From contig JAEOTC010000092.1 of assembly GCA_016840035.1 (NCBI GenBank), forward strand, positions 1-39,010: a stretch of DNA of 39,010 nt. Direction: 5' to 3'. Of this stretch, positions 7,143-39,010 are shown piece by piece; within the stretch, counting starts at the first letter, position 1; every line of letters begins with the position of its first letter. Position numbers and translations under genes: made by a program. Origin of the DNA: Candidatus Hodarchaeota archaeon (lineage in GTDB: Archaea > Asgardarchaeota > Heimdallarchaeia > Hodarchaeales > Hodarchaeaceae). The notes beneath the pieces were generated by a model. The model was not told the DNA's origin. It saw only the letters and a list, made by a program, of their open reading frames with translations, and ran no database searches.

Positions 7143-7913
7143 CTAAATTGGTTTCCATCCAATCTTATTAGATCCTTCATCTCTTAAAACTCTTATATTT
7201 TGAATAGGATCCTGTACAAATGCTTTGGATAGTTTATTGAGATCATCTGGATAATAGGGAGGATTCCATTTAATTCCAATCTCTGATTGATAAATTTCTA
7301 AGGGGACACCAATATCAATTACATAGAAGTCTCCTAGATATTTTTGATCCAGAAGAAGTAAACCAGTTTTTACAAAAGCTATTGTCATTGTCGCTAAGGG
7401 GTGAAATTTACTAAAATTTTCACCTGTTGTGATATCTATTCCTGAAGGACAATCCAATGAGATAACAGGATCATTACTTTGAAAGAATGAAAATACCTGT
7501 TCAGTTAGCTGGTCTTCCCGATACTCAAAGTTATATCCCAGATAACAATCTAAGATAATCGTGTTTTCACTACTTTTTGCAGGAATGCCTTCTTTTATTT
7601 CCACACCCACCATTTTAGCTCTTATCAATTGATCCTTAAGTGTTTTATTTGCAATTTCCTCCCCTTTAGGAAGAAAGATAGAGGTTTTACAGCCCCACGC
7701 AGCCAATCTCCTTGCTGCCACCATACCTCCCCCACCATTGCCTCCCGAACCACACACAATCAAATACGAAGTATTCAGATTTCCCATAAGAAAAGCCAAA
7801 CGTGCAAGATTAGCTCCTGCATTTTCCATCATTATTGACAAAGAAATACCTCGTTGTTCCATCAACCGATCTACTTGAATCATTTGTTCACGGGTTATTC
7901 CTGGCAGAACCAA
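7143..7913 (-). CDS. nnrE: NAD(P)H-hydrate epimerase (stand-alone YjeF N-terminal domain)
   Basis: MIQVDR...MMENAG, VCGSGGNGGGGMVAARRL, ILDCYLGY, VISLDCPSG, ATMTIAFVKTGL, DIGVP motifs of YjeF_N. Confidence 0.9.
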   Translation of the reverse strand: MVLPGITREQMIQVDRLMEQRGISLSIMMENAGANLARLAFLMGNLNTSYLIVCGSGGNGGGGMVAARRLAAWGCKTSIFLPKGEEIANKTLKDQLIRAKMVGVEIKEGIPAKSSENTIILDCYLGYNFEYREDQLTEQVFSFFQSNDPVISLDCPSGIDITTGENFSKFHPLATMTIAFVKTGLLLLDQKYLGDFYVIDIGVPLEIYQSEIGIKWNPPYYPDDLNKLSKAFVQDPIQNIRVLRDEGSNKIGWKPI

Positions 7914-7976
7914 CTAGATCACCACGTTTCTAGACATCGTAAAAGGGAAGGGAACAACAATCTCCAGTAAACTGAA

Positions 7977-9074
7977 TTATTCCACCCCAAAGCTCTCGTA
8001 CACCAACCGTTTACCTCCTTTAGCAAAAGTATCGGTATTAATATACGACATGGATGCAAGAGATTCTGCAAATTCACGTATGAATCCTGTTGTGAAGCGT
8101 TTTAATGCCCCTCGTAGGAAAAATGTTGTTTGGGGTGTAAGAATCAAGGAAAGAACCTGATTTTTCCGTTCAAGAACTAATTGATTTCCCTCAAGGTTCA
8201 CCTCCGAGATGTCAGCTGTTGACTTAGTAGCCTCTTGCATAAGTGAGGTAATTGCTACAATACCACCTGCAAACAATGCTTCATCAAGAGACTCATCATC
8301 GGCTTTAAAGTCATATGAAAAGAGAGGAACACCAGTTTCATGAATTACTAAGATACGATCGGCTTGATGACGATTAAAGACTGCAAAATTATCACGACTC
8401 CCAAAAGAAATGAAATATAGAATAAAACCAATTGCTACATCTGCACGCAAGAGAATTGTAAACACCATGGAATTTAATGATATAGCAATAGGTTTGAACA
8501 TAAAGGGAACCATATATGCAATAATAATTCCTATGATCATATACTTCAACTGCTTCTTCTGAATTGCCCATGCATCATTGTAACCCTTCCATAAGCTTAA
8601 AATTATGAGTAAACTACCCATCCCAGGTAAGAAAAAGGTTAGAAAATCTGTTAATGGATCAAATGATACGATAAACATATCTAACATAGGATGGTAGGTT
8701 GTTACGAATTCTCCCAACAGAATCGCTACCATTGTCCCACCTAAAAACAATGTATGTACCATTTGTTTCCAAGTAAAGATGGTATCATATTCAAACGCCT
8801 CAAAGAAGTATAATAGGAAACAAACAGACAACATAGAACTTATTATAGACAATTTAGATATTAGAACTAAGAATGATTTATCAGAAATAAACATTGCGAT
8901 TAAACCTGAGCCATCCGCAAATAGTAAGGCAATCAATGCCATTAAAAATAGAGTTAATGTTTTGGCATTATATTTTATCCACCGTTTGGACAGACTAAGG
9001 ACGATTATAATTTCAGCCGACACACATAAAACAGCAATCGTCAATGTTATTATTAAATCAGGTGTAAGGATCAT
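7977..9074 (-). CDS. Seven-TM membrane protein fused to a C-terminal longin-like domain
   Basis: Seven hydrophobic helices in the first ~225 aa; the C-terminal ~125 aa follow a beta-beta-alpha-beta-beta-beta-alpha pattern (RILVIHETGVPLFSYDF / DEALFAGGIVAITSLMQE / ISEVNLEGNQLVLERKNQVLSLILT / LRGALKRFTTGF). Confidence 0.72.
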   Translation of the reverse strand: MILTPDLIITLTIAVLCVSAEIIIVLSLSKRWIKYNAKTLTLFLMALIALLFADGSGLIAMFISDKSFLVLISKLSIISSMLSVCFLLYFFEAFEYDTIFTWKQMVHTLFLGGTMVAILLGEFVTTYHPMLDMFIVSFDPLTDFLTFFLPGMGSLLIILSLWKGYNDAWAIQKKQLKYMIIGIIIAYMVPFMFKPIAISLNSMVFTILLRADVAIGFILYFISFGSRDNFAVFNRHQADRILVIHETGVPLFSYDFKADDESLDEALFAGGIVAITSLMQEATKSTADISEVNLEGNQLVLERKNQVLSLILTPQTTFFLRGALKRFTTGFIREFAESLASMSYINTDTFAKGGKRLVYESFGVE

Positions 9075-26959: not shown

Positions 26960-27748
26960 TCAGATAATAAGCTGTTTGATTTCAGCGATTTTTGATTCCA
27001 CTGTAGTAATTGTATCAGAGGGGGCAATCTTAGGATTCGCGTCAATTAACAGTAATAATCCTTCACCTAGAATATAAACAAAGATATTTGAAACGCCACT
27101 AACAGCAAGAAAGAACTCGGGTTGTTCTAAATGGGCAGCAAAAGCTCCTCGTATAGCACGAACAGCGGCAGGAAGAATCTTTGGATCCATTTGATTAACT
27201 ATTACTGCTCCCGTGAAAGAAGAAACACAGGCACCCTGAATTGCTTCTTCTGTTGATTTCCAACTTAAGAGTACTTCATCAACGGATTGTTTCATTGATT
27301 CTCCCATATACCGACTTTCCCCAGTCATAACCGTTAAAATGGCTTCGTCAAAGTCTTGTTTCTCTTTTTTTGTTATCCGAATTGATTTTCTACCAAATTT
27401 ATATGAAAAACTACCCAGGAATAAAGTCATCAAGGTTCTAAGTTTAAATTCTATATCCAGTAGTGATGCTGAAGCCGAAGATACCAATGCGAAAAGACCT
27501 TCACCTCGAACAATGCCAGCGATCCGCATTGAAGCGAAATCAACATAGAAAATTTGGCCTGGATCAATTTGTTCTTCCTTCAATCCTTGAGAAAGATCAA
27601 AAGCTGATTGCAACAATGTAAAGATTTGTTTGGGAGAGAAATCATCAGTATCCTTTGAAGGACGAAAATCCTTCGAAATTAATGGACGTCCTTTATCTGT
27701 GAATACAAAGAAACCTAAAAAGATTTCAAGCTCATCAAATGAAACCAT
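26960..27748 (-). CDS. Longin-like + roadblock/LC7 two-domain protein
   Basis: N-half FFVFTDKGRPLISKDF / IFTLLQSAFDLS / IFYVDFASMRIAGIVRGEGLFALVS / IEFKLRTLMTLF (longin-like); C-half VDEVLLSW..IQGACVSSFTGAVIVNQM..FFLAVSGVSNIFVYILGEGLLLLIDA..IAEIKQLI (roadblock-like). Confidence 0.75.
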   Translation of the reverse strand: MVSFDELEIFLGFFVFTDKGRPLISKDFRPSKDTDDFSPKQIFTLLQSAFDLSQGLKEEQIDPGQIFYVDFASMRIAGIVRGEGLFALVSSASASLLDIEFKLRTLMTLFLGSFSYKFGRKSIRITKKEKQDFDEAILTVMTGESRYMGESMKQSVDEVLLSWKSTEEAIQGACVSSFTGAVIVNQMDPKILPAAVRAIRGAFAAHLEQPEFFLAVSGVSNIFVYILGEGLLLLIDANPKIAPSDTITTVESKIAEIKQLII

Positions 27749-27754
27749 TTGTTT

Positions 27755-28297
27755 TCACTCTCCTAATATTAACTTGCCCATTTGAACAAAAGCGTCTTCT
27801 ACCTTAGAGCCAGTTTTTGCTGATGTAGTAATGAATTCTTCTGCTTCTAATTTTTTCATTATTTCCTCTCGAGAACCAGGTACTTCTTCTTTAGCGAGAT
27901 CTTCCTTATTCCCAATAACAATGATTTTGGCGTTAGGACTCTGTTCTCGTACATCATCTCGCCATCTCTCGAGTTTTGTAAATGTCTCCTCTGTCCGAGA
28001 TAAATCAAAGACAAGAAAAACACCATGGGCTTTTTTCAGGTATAGGTGACGAAAATTAGTAAATCCAGATTGACCAGCTACATCCCAGATCTGATAGATT
28101 AACTCCTGTTTTCCACCATCATGAGTATCTAGCATTACAGTTTTGGATAAGAAGTCAACTCCTAGTGTGATTTGATATCCCTCTTCAAAAAAATTGTCCA
28201 CATAACGTTTAATCAGGCTAGTCTTCCCCACTTCTGGTTCACCGACTAATAACAGCTTAAAGGCAAATTTACCCGATTTTCCTTTCTTTTTCGGCAT
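27755..28297 (-). CDS. Rab-like small GTPase with N-terminal polybasic extension
   Basis: G1 GEPEVGKT, G2 ITLGVDF, G3 WDVAGQ, G4 NKED, G5 TSAK; starts MPKKKGKSGK; GAGGAG SD. Confidence 0.94.
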   Translation of the reverse strand: MPKKKGKSGKFAFKLLLVGEPEVGKTSLIKRYVDNFFEEGYQITLGVDFLSKTVMLDTHDGGKQELIYQIWDVAGQSGFTNFRHLYLKKAHGVFLVFDLSRTEETFTKLERWRDDVREQSPNAKIIVIGNKEDLAKEEVPGSREEIMKKLEAEEFITTSAKTGSKVEDAFVQMGKLILGE

Positions 28298-32798: not shown

Positions 32799-33626
32799 AT
32801 GGAACCAGTTGATATAGTCGGGGTAGTATTTATTATCTTAGGAATTATATTTTATTTGGCACTTGGAATACGACTTTATAGATCTTATAAAGATTCGGAA
32901 AAGAAACAAACGTTATATCTATCTTTACTGCTGATTTTCGGTGGAATGGCATTATTGTCTCTTACTCTTGAACAAGTAATACTACTTGTTAATGCAGATC
33001 CGCTTGATTCACAAACGGTTGATGATGCTATCAGTATTTTGAAATATTCAGAAATTGATGTCTTCTGGGTAGCATTTATGTTTGCTACTCTGGCTTGGAT
33101 AACTAGTAGTATGGCAATCATTGCTGCAAACTTTTTCACTCAATCATTTTTCCCTGAAAGTAATAAAAGACTATTACTCATCCCTATCATTTTAATGGTT
33201 GGGTTCCTCCTTCTTCTGACTTTATCTCCCTTTTATTATGAATACGTGGAAGGGGATTGGAGTCCCAATCACGATGCCTCAACAACTTTTCTTAAATGGA
33301 TTCTTTTCTTGATACCTTTATGGACAATATCATTCCTCTTCTTGTACCTAAGCGTGTCTCTAAAGCGAAAAGGAGTAATCGCATGGCGTCGAGTTGGTTG
33401 GTTCTTCATGAGTCAGGTAATATTATCAATCGGATTTACAATTGAAATATTAAATCCAGGTACTATTACCACTTTTCTTGATAGTCTCAACATAAACATA
33501 GATTTATTACTGAATAAAGCTTTGTGGGCTGTATCATCACGATTTATGGTCATGATGTATCCCATCCTCATGTGGATTGCTGTATATACTCCCAATTGGG
33601 CAAAAGGTTTGCTTGGTGTGTCCTAA
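32799..33626 (+). CDS. Stand-alone seven-TM membrane protein
   Basis: Seven hydrophobic helices, basic loops after TM1 and TM5, C-terminal YTPNWAKGLLG; AGGTGA SD. Confidence 0.78.
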   Translation: MEPVDIVGVVFIILGIIFYLALGIRLYRSYKDSEKKQTLYLSLLLIFGGMALLSLTLEQVILLVNADPLDSQTVDDAISILKYSEIDVFWVAFMFATLAWITSSMAIIAANFFTQSFFPESNKRLLLIPIILMVGFLLLLTLSPFYYEYVEGDWSPNHDASTTFLKWILFLIPLWTISFLFLYLSVSLKRKGVIAWRRVGWFFMSQVILSIGFTIEILNPGTITTFLDSLNINIDLLLNKALWAVSSRFMVMMYPILMWIAVYTPNWAKGLLGVS

Positions 33627-33635
33627 GCTCCAATC

Positions 33636-33651
33636 CTTCCTTCTTTTTTTT
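33636..33651 (+). terminator. Oligo-T terminator between convergent genes
   Basis: CTTCCTTCTTTTTTTT immediately after the 7TM gene stop. Confidence 0.45.
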
Positions 33652-34774
33652 AGAATCCATCTATCCAGTCCATAAAACGGGAAGATACTTGTTTAAAAAG
33701 TAATTCTCGAATTAGGGGATTTCGTTTTGCTGAAAGATCTACCGCAACTTCAATTAAATCTTCATCATACTGTTTGCGAACTTCTGCAATTAATGGTTCT
33801 CGTTCCTCTTCTGGATAAGTAAACACATCAATTAATTGATTTGCTACTTCTAAAATTTGAATGTATGCCCGATCAAGTATCACTTCAGCGCGATTTGGAC
33901 TTTGTTTGATTTGTTTCAATATCTCTTTCGAGTAATTGCAGGAATGTCCATTTTTTACTTGTTTTTTATTACTATCAATAAGTAACTCTTGAGGGTAACG
34001 TTTAGTAAGGTTTTTGGGTATTCCTATCACATCAGCTTGTTTGGGATCAATTACATCCTCAGTATAACTGACTTTTCGGAGAACTATCTGTGGAATCAGA
34101 AGATCCAAGCTATGGACTATTAAATCAATCAGCACTTGAGATTCTCCAGTCACCATAACTGGATTTCCCCGATAAATTGCGCCAAGAATTCTATCATCAT
34201 TCTTTTTTATTTGAGAAAATAAGAAATCAAGATTACCTCCCTCGGTTTTCTCTGAATAAGTAACCCTTTTTTCTATTATTTGTACCTGTGTTGTTGTATC
34301 TTTTTCTGTTACTTCCCAATGATTCAATAAATCTTGCAACTCATTCGATAACACTTTGCCCTCTCCGTAGGTGAATTGCTGCTTAATCTTGGAAGCAATA
34401 TCATCTGCGGTATGTTTTAGGAAAGGAACCTTAGAATATAGAAAAGCTTGTTTTTCATCTGGAACAAGATAGATAAGTGCCGAAACACACTGGGGAGTTG
34501 AAGGATCATCCTGTCGAATTTGGAATAAATATATAAAACCGATTCGTTTTTTTGTGAGACTTGGAAAGGGAAGAATCGCTTCGGTATTGTCTAACTCTGA
34601 ACTAGTCATCATAGATAAGGGCATTGTAGACTTTAACGCAACTTGGGCTGCTTCAGAATCCGAAAGATCATGTTTTGTATAAAAAATAGGAACAGCTTGC
34701 TTCAGTTTTGTAAATACACAAAATAGAACTTCTCTATCCAATTTATTCCATCTCGTTTCAAATTTAAAAATCAT
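33650..34774 (-). CDS. DENN-like (folliculin-like) protein: uDENN/longin + core alpha/beta DENN + helical dDENN
   Basis: N-domain VLFCVFT..VPIFY / AAQVALKS / EAILPFPS..IGFIYLFQI..VSALIYLV; core RILGAIYRGNPVMVTG..LIVHSLDLLIP..LRKVSY..ADVIGI..LLID; helical C-terminus. True start may be TTG 34741. Confidence 0.65.
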   Translation of the reverse strand: MIFKFETRWNKLDREVLFCVFTKLKQAVPIFYTKHDLSDSEAAQVALKSTMPLSMMTSSELDNTEAILPFPSLTKKRIGFIYLFQIRQDDPSTPQCVSALIYLVPDEKQAFLYSKVPFLKHTADDIASKIKQQFTYGEGKVLSNELQDLLNHWEVTEKDTTTQVQIIEKRVTYSEKTEGGNLDFLFSQIKKNDDRILGAIYRGNPVMVTGESQVLIDLIVHSLDLLIPQIVLRKVSYTEDVIDPKQADVIGIPKNLTKRYPQELLIDSNKKQVKNGHSCNYSKEILKQIKQSPNRAEVILDRAYIQILEVANQLIDVFTYPEEEREPLIAEVRKQYDEDLIEVAVDLSAKRNPLIRELLFKQVSSRFMDWIDGF

Positions 34775-36028: not shown

Positions 36029-36769
36029 TTATTTTTTCAGAAAAAGGGCAGTATATTGTTTCGCTTTCGGATCAGTGACTTCTTCACTAAACTTATGCAT
36101 AACACGAGTGAGAATTTCCTTTATATCATTGAACGTAACGCCTTTCTCGTTACATAATGTCTCCACTTTCTTGTGAAGAACGGGATTTGTCCTCAAAATT
36201 TGAGAAAGCAAGTAAAATGTAATTTTCTCGTCATTCGTTCTTTTTTGGAGAAATTTGAGTATATTTTTTTCTGACCGTTGATAACGATTGGAGTTAATCA
36301 ATTGAAATAAAATAGGGTAATACTCCTCAGATTTCATTACTTGCCAATCTCGAATTTCCTGAATTCCACGTAAGGTTTCTATGTAGTGTTTTTCCATTAA
36401 CAAGTCTGTAAATCCGATTTTTTGCCATGATTCAAGTTTTTTTACTAAGGTTTGATATTCTGTATCCGTTTCAATGTTGGCTTCAATAGATCGGATCCTA
36501 TACTCCATTAAACCTAGTATAAAACCCGGGGAATACGATTTAAGGCTTGATTCAAGATCAGGCGCAGAACATACTTCTTCTTGAATTTTTTTTAACACCA
36601 GTCGATTTTTATTCAATATAGGCTCATTTGACTCGCTTTCCAATGAATCTAATGCCCAATAAATAAACAAAGCCTTTTCAGAATTTTTTGATTCTCTAAT
36701 TATGGAATCTAAATCTTCTTGTTCTTTTAATAGCTTCTGGATCTCAGAAAAAACAATAGGTTGAGTCAA
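36029..36769 (-). CDS. Hypothetical alpha-helical protein
   Basis: 246-aa ORF, TTG start with GAGGG upstream; no motif recognised. Confidence 0.6.
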   Translation of the reverse strand: MTQPIVFSEIQKLLKEQEDLDSIIRESKNSEKALFIYWALDSLESESNEPILNKNRLVLKKIQEEVCSAPDLESSLKSYSPGFILGLMEYRIRSIEANIETDTEYQTLVKKLESWQKIGFTDLLMEKHYIETLRGIQEIRDWQVMKSEEYYPILFQLINSNRYQRSEKNILKFLQKRTNDEKITFYLLSQILRTNPVLHKKVETLCNEKGVTFNDIKEILTRVMHKFSEEVTDPKAKQYTALFLKK

Positions 36770-36889: not shown

Positions 36890-39010
36890 TTAACCCACTA
36901 GCATACGGTAAACTTCAGCAGGATCGTGTTCTCCAGGAGCTCTGATTTTAAATCGAATCTCAACCTTCTGTTCTGGTTGAACTTCTTCAAAAATCCATTT
37001 CATGGCTTGACCATTATTTACTGAAGAATGTTCCTCAAATCCGACTTCAGGATCCTCATGAGTTTCACCTACTAATTCAAATCCTTGAGGTAAGAAATCA
37101 GTGATTTCTACATTCTGAATAACGGCTGTTCCATCATTAATTCCTCGAAGAACCACTTCGTATTCGTTGGTTTCCTCGGAGGAAGTTGAAGATACCATTT
37201 TACCGATTTTGAGCTTACGACGCTCGTGAACAACGGTAATTGGACCTGCTTCTGCTTCTGCAGAGATCGGTTTAACTTCTGGATACATGTTACCTAGGAC
37301 TGTGACAGTCCCAGTAAATTCTTCTTCAGGTTTTGCAGTCGCATAAAGGGGATATTTTACAAGGATTTCTTGATCCTGTTCGAGTGGCCCGAATACTGTC
37401 TCTTCTAGATGTTCCATAGTAATTACTACATTACTTCCTGAAACATCAAAAGTGAATTCGTCAAGTAGTTCGCTCTCTTTAAGGATTTCAACCTGTTCGC
37501 GTTCTGGGCCTTCAAATCCTTCTGGAATTGCTTCTGACAATTGAAGATACATAATTTCCGTACTACCAATGGACTTTACTACCTGTTCGGAAATTATCTC
37601 TGTTCTCCTAAACGAGGGAATTACGAGAGGTTCGTAGGCCTTCGTAACTTCGATTCCCATGAATGGTAATGCATAACCAGGTAGAACACATTCTGCAATT
37701 ACTTCAGCATCGAATAGGTACTTTACACTTAGATCAAGTTCTCTACCAAACTGTGGAATTGCAGTGTCATCTTCAACCGTAATTGTCCATGGATCAAGGG
37801 AAAATGTTTCACTAGGGTCAATAGATCGTTCTTCTTCTGGGAAGTCTTTACCTAACCATTCAACACGAACATTTCCTTCATCAAGAGGACCTTCAAAGAT
37901 TCTAACTTCTTTTAAGTCCATTTCAAACTCGCTAGTATTCTCAAGCTCAAACAAACAGTCGAAATCCCCTGGATTTTCTTCTTGTTCTTCACGAGAGATG
38001 AATTGAAAGACTGATGAACTACCTGTGATTGTGTCCAGACCTAATCCTGACAAACTCTTTTCTTTTACCTTGTAAGTGGCTTTCGTGTCACCAATAATGT
38101 AGGGATCATTACCCTCTTCTGGTAGAGTAACTTTCATAACACAACTAGCTTCGATTGTGTCACCTGCTTCAATTTCTTCAATTTCCCAAAGAATATGACT
38201 TCCATCATCGTCTGAACTTTGTCTTAAAGTTCCAACACTAGCATAAAATTCCCCAACACTAGTAGAATCATCCCAGATGTATTTTTTTACAACGACATCA
38301 TTTAAGGCATCATCAAAATCGTTGGAAAGCTTTAAGGTAAACTTCATTCCAGATTCTTCACCTCGTGCAAAGAGAGGAGGTGAATCTTCTTTTTCTAAGT
38401 CCCAAAAATCTTCCTTAACGGTAAATTTGGGTGCTTCTACTTGAAACTCAAATGGTACATATTTTGATGATTTAGGGTCTAACTCTTTCAAAGCAAACGA
38501 GTTTCCAAAAACTGCAGTTCCCTGTTCTTCATCTGCTTCAAACGAAACTTCATCAACACCTTCTAATACGGTATCGATGGCCCATATCCTATCTTTACTA
38601 CCTGTGTTGACTACTTCTAGCTTCCCAGTACCAACAAGACCATCAATTTGTTCACCCTCTTCATCTACTAGATTATTATCTCTATCAATTCGATATTGGA
38701 GGGATTCTTGAATCCTTACATATAATCCAGCTTGCCCCTTCTCTGATTCATCTAATGCACGATAATCTTCAGCAGCCCGTTGTTCGTCTTCCTCGGAAAA
38801 TTCACTTTCACCTACGGGTCTTCCAGACTGTTGAATTTTATTGGCTCCGTCTTTCGCCTTGTTTCGTGTTCCTCGATCTCTATCATCCCGCTGAATCCTC
38901 TGTAGTACAGAGACTGCCTCTGGGTCGTTTAAAACTACAATTGAATCAATTGCGGCTTTTCTGACGTCTTTTTCTGGATCTTTTAGAGCAAAATCGAAGA
39001 GAATGTGCAA
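36890..39010 (-). CDS. Acidic multidomain protein: HEAT repeats + mu-homology-like region + DUF11/Ig-like beta-sandwich repeats (5'-truncated)
   Basis: Frame runs to the window edge; HEAT units ALKDPEKDVRKAAIDSIVVLNDPEAVSVL, DRDRGTRNKAKDGA; beta-rich remainder with IEVTKAY..LSEAIPEGF and LKIGKMV..VEITDFLPQGF..MKWIFEEVQP. Confidence 0.72.
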   Translation of the reverse strand: MHILFDFALKDPEKDVRKAAIDSIVVLNDPEAVSVLQRIQRDDRDRGTRNKAKDGANKIQQSGRPVGESEFSEEDEQRAAEDYRALDESEKGQAGLYVRIQESLQYRIDRDNNLVDEEGEQIDGLVGTGKLEVVNTGSKDRIWAIDTVLEGVDEVSFEADEEQGTAVFGNSFALKELDPKSSKYVPFEFQVEAPKFTVKEDFWDLEKEDSPPLFARGEESGMKFTLKLSNDFDDALNDVVVKKYIWDDSTSVGEFYASVGTLRQSSDDDGSHILWEIEEIEAGDTIEASCVMKVTLPEEGNDPYIIGDTKATYKVKEKSLSGLGLDTITGSSSVFQFISREEQEENPGDFDCLFELENTSEFEMDLKEVRIFEGPLDEGNVRVEWLGKDFPEEERSIDPSETFSLDPWTITVEDDTAIPQFGRELDLSVKYLFDAEVIAECVLPGYALPFMGIEVTKAYEPLVIPSFRRTEIISEQVVKSIGSTEIMYLQLSEAIPEGFEGPEREQVEILKESELLDEFTFDVSGSNVVITMEHLEETVFGPLEQDQEILVKYPLYATAKPEEEFTGTVTVLGNMYPEVKPISAEAEAGPITVVHERRKLKIGKMVSSTSSEETNEYEVVLRGINDGTAVIQNVEITDFLPQGFELVGETHEDPEVGFEEHSSVNNGQAMKWIFEEVQPEQKVEIRFKIRAPGEHDPAEVYRMLVG

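Follow-up and report, generated by a model that had tools for sequence, protein, structure and literature searches.

The DNA considered here, hereafter the window, is a stretch of 39,010 nucleotides that constitutes the entire contig C36 (JAEOTC010000092.1) of a 4.3-Mb metagenome-assembled genome (MAG) from a Candidatus Hodarchaeota archaeon (GCA_016840035.1, completeness 87%). Located at its right-hand end is an open reading frame (ORF) that encodes a protein in which short HEAT repeats lead through an acidic linker to a predicted mu-homology domain (MHD); two β-sandwiches follow, the second being a DUF11 domain, and the chain closes with a short C-terminal helix. The coordinates of these features are provided in Table 1. 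The reading frame is still open at the contig end, and thus the apparent TTG start at position 39010 is an artifact. Given that the complete orthologues, which cover 100% of the query, contain 734–740 residues, approximately 33 codons are missing from the 5' end. An initial annotation, made from the sequence without database searches, had described HEAT units, an MHD-like region, and Ig-like repeats within this ORF, and that general organization is borne out by the HEAT_2 match, the predicted MHD fold, and the sandwiches.

Table 1. Positions of the MHD gene, its encoded domains, and the adjacent downstream gene within the window.
Feature	Residues	Window position	Strand	Basis or remark
ORF of the HEAT-MHD-sandwich-DUF11 protein	706 plus stop	36890..39010	minus	5' end cut by contig end
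HEAT repeats	1–62	38825..39010	minus	two of the complete protein's three repeats; HEAT_2 at 5–52
Acidic linker with one long helix	63–92	38735..38824	minus	helix 73–91
Mu-homology domain	~93–445	37676..38734	minus	Foldseek, VIA, PF00928 in orthologues
MHD subdomain B	~205–327	38030..38398	minus	DUF11-like sequence; ends in SLSGLGL motif
Most conserved family block	330–445	37676..38023	minus	invariant alignment columns
Pilin/CnaB/cohesin/MG-type β-sandwich	448–596	37223..37669	minus	C-terminal model and VIA
DUF11 domain	600–690	36941..37213	minus	PF01345, 34.5 bits versus cut-off 24.6, E 2.8e-8
Conserved C-terminal helix, DP.EVYRML.G	697–705	36896..36922	minus	alignment and model
Downstream co-directional gene, no known family	246 residues in all	36029..36769	minus	neighbor conserved in genus only; gaps 38–160 nt

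The protein is strongly acidic, with an isoelectric point (pI) of 4.3 and 155 aspartate and glutamate versus 68 lysine and arginine residues. For the MHD alone the pI is 4.07. No transmembrane (TM) helix or C-terminal anchor is present, the highest 19-residue Kyte-Doolittle value being 1.46, and hydropathy thus confirms the earlier remark that the chain ends without an anchor. Likewise, neither a signal peptide nor a longin domain is observed at the N-termini of the orthologues in an alignment of 28 sequences (A1). Rather, these begin with hydrophilic HEAT sequence (MS..LESSDKNTR..AA.ALG..RTK). A Pfam scan of the window protein yields two matches only, namely the DUF11 domain and a sub-threshold HEAT_2.

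The predicted mu-homology domain and its flanking domains

The AlphaFold2 model of the protein, calculated with the A1 alignment, has a predicted local distance difference test (pLDDT) value of 85.1. It displays helices between residues 2 and 62, the linker helix, an all-β region that extends to residue 690, and the terminal helix. A Foldseek search of the PDB with this model returned the MHDs of AP-4 mu4, AP-2 mu2, AP-1 mu1, and delta-COP with E values of ~1e-10 and template modeling scores of 0.58–0.68 per target. Integrin and PrgB structures rank above the MHDs in this list, with root-mean-square deviations (rmsd) of 17–40 Å that mark them as generic multi-sandwich matches. Re-alignment with VIA gave a Z-score of 19.6 for mu4 (3l81_A), with an rmsd of 2.5 Å over 223 of 250 residues, and 19.3 for mu2 (7ofp_A), with 237 residues aligned. 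The corresponding values are 18.4 for mu1, 17.9 for mu3, 17.2 for delta-COP (4o8q_B), and 16.2 for SGIP1 (5aws_A). Over the MHD targets as a whole, 223–237 residues align with rmsds of 2.5–3.8 Å, and the final aligned residue falls at 444–447 for every one of them. Because each VIA match covers model residues 91 to 445, the MHD is taken to be real, and this region is confidently predicted to fold as an interleaved MHD.

The initial annotation had placed an MHD at residues ~93–335 and had suggested structure prediction followed by Foldseek comparison with AP2 mu2 and delta-COP. Comparison with these structures supports the MHD (VIA Z 17.2–19.3), whereas the span must be extended to ~91–445. As the domain reaches ~445, the first of "three more beta-sandwiches" claimed to follow it lies, in fact, inside the MHD, and the other two correspond to the sandwich at 448–596 and the DUF11 domain. 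The motifs quoted in support of the MHD are present at residues 96–135, 257–281, and 311–325, or approximately 38036–38725 in the window (38020–38728 in the annotation). The MHD region is not predicted to break up into independent Ig domains, and the protein does not carry a signal peptide, two outcomes that would have spoken against the annotation, since an interleaved MHD is predicted and the complete protein lacks such a peptide.

With ~350 residues, the domain is larger than eukaryotic MHDs (~260 residues) by ~90–130 residues. The most conserved block of the family, which follows subdomain B, returns to subdomain A and bears extra strands. Its hallmark motifs are GSSSVFQF, FDC.FELENTSEFEMDL, and IPQFGR.LDLSVKY.

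Sequence comparisons provide an additional line of evidence. The Pfam model of the domain, PF00928 (Adap_comp_sub), is matched at E ≤ 1 in 18 of the 28 orthologues, the best of which (P0033) scores 32.2 bits versus a gathering score of 31.6. A relative, P0066, aligns with positions 12–236 of the 259 in the profile at 40.9 bits (E 1.9e-10). The same positions are covered in P0068 and P0031, and in all three the alignment exceeds the DUF11-like part. A muniscin muHD model is matched in two orthologues, and a PDB comparison of the broad family profile extends to AP-3 mu (E 0.0068). Sequence alignments to mu chains are limited to subdomain B. When the A1 family profile was compared with PDB sequences, only HEAT/alphaRep matches were obtained, and no mu subunit appeared at E ≤ 1.

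The HEAT portion of the model contains four helices (residues 2–10, 14–27, 32–42, and 46–62). Full-length orthologues carry one further repeat, for a total of three repeats of ~30 residues each, or ~90 residues. The suggestion that the missing N-terminus might hold a longer solenoid or a longin domain is therefore not supported, as only this one HEAT repeat is recovered. With the A1 profile, alphaRep/PBS-lyase HEAT proteins are matched at profile positions 4–90. Adaptin_N (PF01602) has no match in any member scanned individually, and the segment, which matches HEAT_2, HEAT_PBS, and alphaRep, is not the trunk of an adaptin large subunit. The linker, here taken as residues 61–92, has a pI of 4.1 and is modeled with low confidence over residues 67–89 (pLDDT below 50 at 67–71 and 81–89), in agreement with the acidic linker noted from the sequence at the outset.

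The C-terminal 263 residues, when folded alone, gave a pLDDT of 87.6. A wide VIA comparison of the first sandwich in this region yielded Z-scores of 15.0 for 4igb_C, 13–14 for pilins, and about 11–12 for cohesins and the alpha-2-macroglobulin receptor-binding domain. TIGR01451 is matched, as is PF01345, in the DUF11 domain that follows. No adaptin ear is found among the 50 best structural matches to the C-terminal model; the first sandwich fills this list, and the DUF11 domain is barely sampled in it. The family profile aligns with the gamma1-adaptin ear at an E value of 0.016. Alpha_adaptinC2 (PF02883) is matched in 4 of 71 relatives, with a best E value of 7e-6, and AP3B1_C weakly in 4 of the 71. 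The likeness of the C-terminal sandwiches to adaptin ears is thus weak and not specific. The YRML sequence in the terminal helix was considered as a ligand or sorting motif of the YxxPhi type contained within the protein itself. It is unlikely to be one, because the tyrosine is replaced by histidine, phenylalanine, or glutamine in several orthologues.

Distribution of the family and its gene neighborhood

A protein search returned 54 relatives with identities of 41–93% over 100% of the query, and the named ones all derive from Hodarchaeales/Heimdallarchaeia MAGs. Orthologues show 63–93% identity at full coverage. They are labeled "HEAT repeat domain-containing protein" by NCBI and, in some cases, "uncharacterized repeat protein (TIGR01451 family)" by JGI. 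A profile restricted to the MHD (A2) detects a single copy in this genome and clear orthologues in 18 of 20 genomes from the genus. Across the phylum, 142 of 301 sampled genomes contain more distant relatives, frequently two to three apiece. The A2 profile matches 187 cluster representatives at E ≤ 1e-3, and the named whole-MHD matches are all from Asgard archaea. The family is characterized by an alignable MHD, the conserved block, and DUF11. Among 71 diverse representatives, DUF11 is matched in 69, PF00928 in 38, HEAT_2 in seven, and a TPR N-terminus in two. The HEAT N-terminus is a trait of the heimdallarchaeial branch, and other branches have other N-termini. In place of the longin domain that precedes the MHD in the medium subunits of AP, COPI, and TSET complexes, the N-termini of the orthologues consist of three HEAT repeats, and PF01217 (Clat_adaptor_s) has no match among the members scanned individually. 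Scans of this genome with PF00928 and PF01217 gave no match and are uninformative, because the control genomes were equally silent.

Two side observations concern the reach of the module. A heimdallarchaeotal protein of 4745 residues (P0071) matches almost the entire MHD profile, at positions 12–342, with its residues 3639–3955 (E 1.5e-21). It is a giant with SBBP, 18 Big_13, and cadherin-like repeats and is surface-type in appearance. In other classes of the phylum, MHD-family paralogues of ~600 residues (loci L049, L050, and L054) lie beside a different, conserved block of six genes (clusters c14–c19) with no helix-hairpin-helix (HhH) gene.

Proteins of this family have been listed before. 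Eme et al. 2023 (Nature 618:992, PMC10307638) include "Adap_comp_sub" among candidate eukaryotic signature proteins on the basis of Pfam matches alone (Suppl. 4.3.1 and Table S3). They report 44 candidates for PF00928 in "most Asgard archaeal phyla", describe AP domains as "not fused to each other", and make the case that building blocks for AP complexes are present in Asgard archaea. The listed Loki-, Hel-, Hermod-, and Jordarchaeial candidates plainly belong, as judged by their motifs, to the MHD-DUF11 family. No Hodarchaeales entry is found among approximately 36 of the 44 candidates, and the GSSSVFQF motif was not found in the supplementary file searched. The protein encoded in the window is accordingly a new, HEAT-fused heimdallarchaeial representative of an Asgard MHD family that had been listed previously. 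The Alpha_adaptinC2 candidates of the same study are different proteins and therefore provide no evidence of a fusion with the MHD family. Some PF00928 entries in Table S3 look unlike the family, for example helical-looking Gerdarchaeales/Heimdallarchaeaceae sequences and hydrophobic Lokiarchaeales sequences of ~330 residues, and these may be false positives. Our literature search found no paper coupling Asgard with the mu homology domain or with Adap_comp_sub. In two further reports, adaptor proteins are mentioned only in passing (Kostlbacher et al. 2026, PMC12962969), and AP gamma adaptin is named with no reference to the MHD (a 2026 preprint on structural clustering, PMC13734099).

The gene order around the MHD gene is fixed within the genus: thymidylate kinase, major facilitator superfamily (MFS) transporter, HhH protein, MHD gene, a 250-residue gene without known family, and nucleoside deoxyribosyltransferase. 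In all 19 main-lineage loci of the genus for which the upstream side is visible, the HhH gene immediately precedes the MHD gene. It is the sole neighbor kept throughout the class, with a head-to-head arrangement in other families. The encoded protein contains a β-rich N-domain of ~100 residues, an acidic linker, and four HhH/DUF4332-like modules, and the Pfam entries HHH_5, IMS_HHH, and DNA_pol_lambda fingers are matched in the protein. Its N-terminal and HhH parts have pI values of ~9.0–9.3, its linker 4.1, and the whole protein 7.7. ESM Atlas look-ups for the HhH neighbor and the 246-residue downstream gene gave no lead (best scores 0.80–0.81). In the closest relatives (loci L002–L005), the HhH gene is preceded by a separate ORF of ~107 residues (~7860–8190) that duplicates the N-terminal β domain of its product.

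In the genome under study, the small contig C260 (locus L055) carries, at positions 1–1893, an MFS transporter that shares 80% identity with its L005 counterpart, together with a 108-residue paralogue of the HhH N-domain. Because this is the expected upstream order, an assembly gap is taken to hold the HhH gene along with the initial ~33 codons of the MHD gene, and C260 probably abuts the right end of the window across it.

No candidates for large adaptin or sigma subunits were identified among the genes near the MHD gene. Approximately 9 kb away, at 26960–28297 on the minus strand, a Ras-family small GTPase gene (Pfam Ras, E 9.8e-39) lies beside a 262-residue ORF without a Pfam match, and the two are kept in genus-level synteny. 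Two further conserved neighbors, of 374 residues (33650–34774, minus strand) and 275 residues (32799–33626, plus strand), have no Pfam family at E ≤ 0.01.

A probable soluble scaffold and the competing explanations

The established part of the explanation comprises the domain order, the MHD fold as predicted, and the lack of a signal peptide, TM segment, or longin domain, together with the degree of conservation and the range of genomes in which the family occurs. In our view the protein is probably a cytosolic, strongly acidic multidomain scaffold and the genus-wide, single-copy orthologue of an Asgard-wide MHD and DUF11 family. By analogy with eukaryotic MHDs, which bind other proteins, the MHD and/or the HEAT repeats may provide a docking surface for proteins, and the likeliest partner would be the basic four-HhH protein encoded beside the MHD gene across the class. 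On the basis of this adjacency and a weak complex prediction, a soluble scaffold with the HhH protein as its first candidate partner is the best-supported mechanism.

Several observations weigh against the scaffold and its proposed partner. The MHD fold, including its strand connectivity, is a prediction, and the window protein itself gives no PF00928 match at E ≤ 1. Much of the PF00928 sequence signal falls in subdomain B, where bacterial DUF11 repeats score too. Indeed, an Erysipelothrix protein with LPXTG-anchored DUF11 repeats (P0080) reaches 46.8 bits over profile positions 126–204 only, and because it passes the gathering score, a PF00928 score alone is unspecific. The gap of ~250–270 nt between the MHD and HhH genes is such that co-transcription is not implied. 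No RNA run is listed among the sequencing runs that contain this sequence, the DNA runs being marine-sediment metagenomes, and no expression data were found. Finally, the complex prediction, carried out in three runs with a full-length orthologue and residues 1–215 of its HhH neighbor, gave weak support, with a score of 0.58 versus 0.00 for the best control, with one of the three runs at 0.00 and no interface reported. The runs agree in at least 68% of contacts, and the partner pLDDT is at least 66. When the score was calibrated, the pass mark was reached by 58 of the 80 solved complexes and by 2 of the 110 mismatches. Scores of 0.60 or lower included only seven of the 80 solved complexes and both of the passing mismatches. 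Given the class-wide adjacency, the prediction affords a modest rise in the odds that the MHD protein binds the HhH protein.

It could be argued that there is no real MHD at all and that a run of generic DUF11/Ig-like sandwiches mimics both the motif order and the Pfam matches, a caveat already raised in the initial annotation. In relatives DUF11 does overlap subdomain B, at PF00928 profile positions ~120–233. In a profile search of 1.84 billion proteins, bacterial DUF11 giants match this part of the domain 8–15 times each, and the behavior of P0080 and of the window protein toward PF00928 points in the same direction. The bacterial matches never extend, however, over the subdomain A part of the A2 profile, whereas the PF00928 alignments in P0066, P0068, and P0031 span the positions noted above. 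Furthermore, the Z-score with mu4 is far above those of generic sandwich matches, and five other MHD families give similar values over the same residues. The whole-domain evidence, that is, the fold and PF00928 over positions 12–236, exceeds DUF11 mimicry. The caveat thus holds for subdomain B and fails for the entire domain, leaving mimicry as a very improbable account. The DUF11 domain, the pilin-like sandwich, and the TIGR01451-family naming of some orthologues by JGI would suit an adhesin that is secreted or exposed at the surface, the usual role of DUF11-repeat proteins. With no signal peptide, TM segment, or anchor in any orthologue, and an N-terminus formed by a HEAT array, such a role is scarcely credible.

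More serious consideration is due to a nucleic acid- or chromatin-linked factor, an acidic MHD protein that would regulate, chaperone, or mimic the ligand of its basic HhH neighbor and would have nothing to do with membranes. The class-wide adjacency of the two genes in two orientations, the Pfam matches of the HhH protein, the opposite charges of the two proteins, and the weak complex support all favor it, as do the thymidylate kinase and nucleoside deoxyribosyltransferase genes that flank the pair in the genus. Modules of the HhH/DUF4332 type are nevertheless no proof of DNA binding, the flanking genes of nucleotide metabolism are conserved in the genus only, and the complex score falls in a band where, without a good prior, passes are more often wrong than right. 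We regard this role as unlikely. The initial annotation proposed a candidate single-chain proto-adaptor; on this reading, one polypeptide with trunk, MHD, and appendage functions would select membrane cargo and aid in forming vesicles or buds, perhaps with nearby small GTPases. An MHD, HEAT repeats, and β-sandwiches do occur together in one chain, and trafficking adaptors, the top structural matches, are the only eukaryotic proteins in which the MHD fold is known. The weak matches to Alpha_adaptinC2, AP3B1_C, and the gamma1 ear, the syntenic Ras-family gene, and the building-block argument of Eme et al. 2023 (PMC10307638) can also be cited in its favor. On the other hand, the short HEAT segment is not adaptin-like and has no Adaptin_N match, there is no longin domain, and the ear-like signal is also given by P0080 (Alpha_adaptinC2, 1.8e-5). 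The sandwich at 448–596 fits pilin and cohesin folds best, and the neighbor kept across the class encodes the HhH protein rather than a membrane protein or GTPase. AP-2 mu2 binds acidic lipids through basic patches; the MHD described here is acidic. Since the giant P0071 carries the entire MHD-like module, the module is not tied to coats. With no adaptin-like trunk, unspecific ears, and no membrane or coat tie, the proto-adaptor, and with it a vesicle-coat or cargo-adaptor role for the Hodarchaeales MHD protein, is improbable.

Outside the Asgard archaea, MHDs characterize the coat adaptors of eukaryotes. A single-copy, well-conserved, confidently predicted MHD in Hodarchaeales supports the view that the module predates eukaryotes. 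It is a highly doubtful proposition that the eukaryotic MHD arose from the prokaryotic stock represented by this family, in which a DUF11-type sandwich became inserted into a second sandwich, and that the family is hence a living relative of the mu/delta ancestor. Judging from the conserved pairing with the HhH protein, the module may have had an ancestral setting other than membrane traffic. The DUF11-like subdomain B, together with a bacterial surface protein that exceeds the PF00928 cut-off and comes close to that of the adaptin-ear model, tempers claims of prokaryotic "adaptors", in that MHD or adaptin-ear calls made from Pfam alone can be DUF11 cross-matches. The Hodarchaeales MHD protein represents a concrete target for expression and testing.

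Comparison with known systems

The protein shares with the eukaryotic MHDs, namely those of the AP-1 to AP-4 mu subunits, delta-COP, and the muniscins SGIP1/FCHo, a predicted two-lobed, all-β fold. The sequence similarity to them is weak but real, with identities of 9–15%. Unlike the mu and delta subunits and the muniscins, the Asgard protein contains neither a longin nor an F-BAR domain, and its MHD is strongly acidic. It also differs from the adaptin large subunit, as its HEAT part is no Adaptin_N trunk. The N-terminal ~90 residues are rather like those of the alphaRep/PBS-lyase HEAT proteins (9sah_A, E 7e-35 summed over repeats), from which the protein is distinguished by having three repeats only and by their fusion to β domains.

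Within the Asgard archaea, the candidates of Eme et al. 2023 display the same superfamily architecture, in which the W/F-D-C..F.N.SEF block, a sandwich, and DUF11 come after the MHD. The Loki-, Hel-, Hermod-, and Jordarchaeial sequences have the NRIW and DC..F.N.SEF motifs, as does the Hodarchaeales family. With the DUF11/TIGR01451 surface proteins of bacteria, the likeness lies in the C-terminal PF01345 domain and the DUF11-like subdomain B. The bacterial proteins are arrays of repeats that are secreted and anchored to the wall, whereas the Asgard protein is probably cytosolic and contains a single DUF11-like sandwich inserted into another, giving rise to the predicted MHD.

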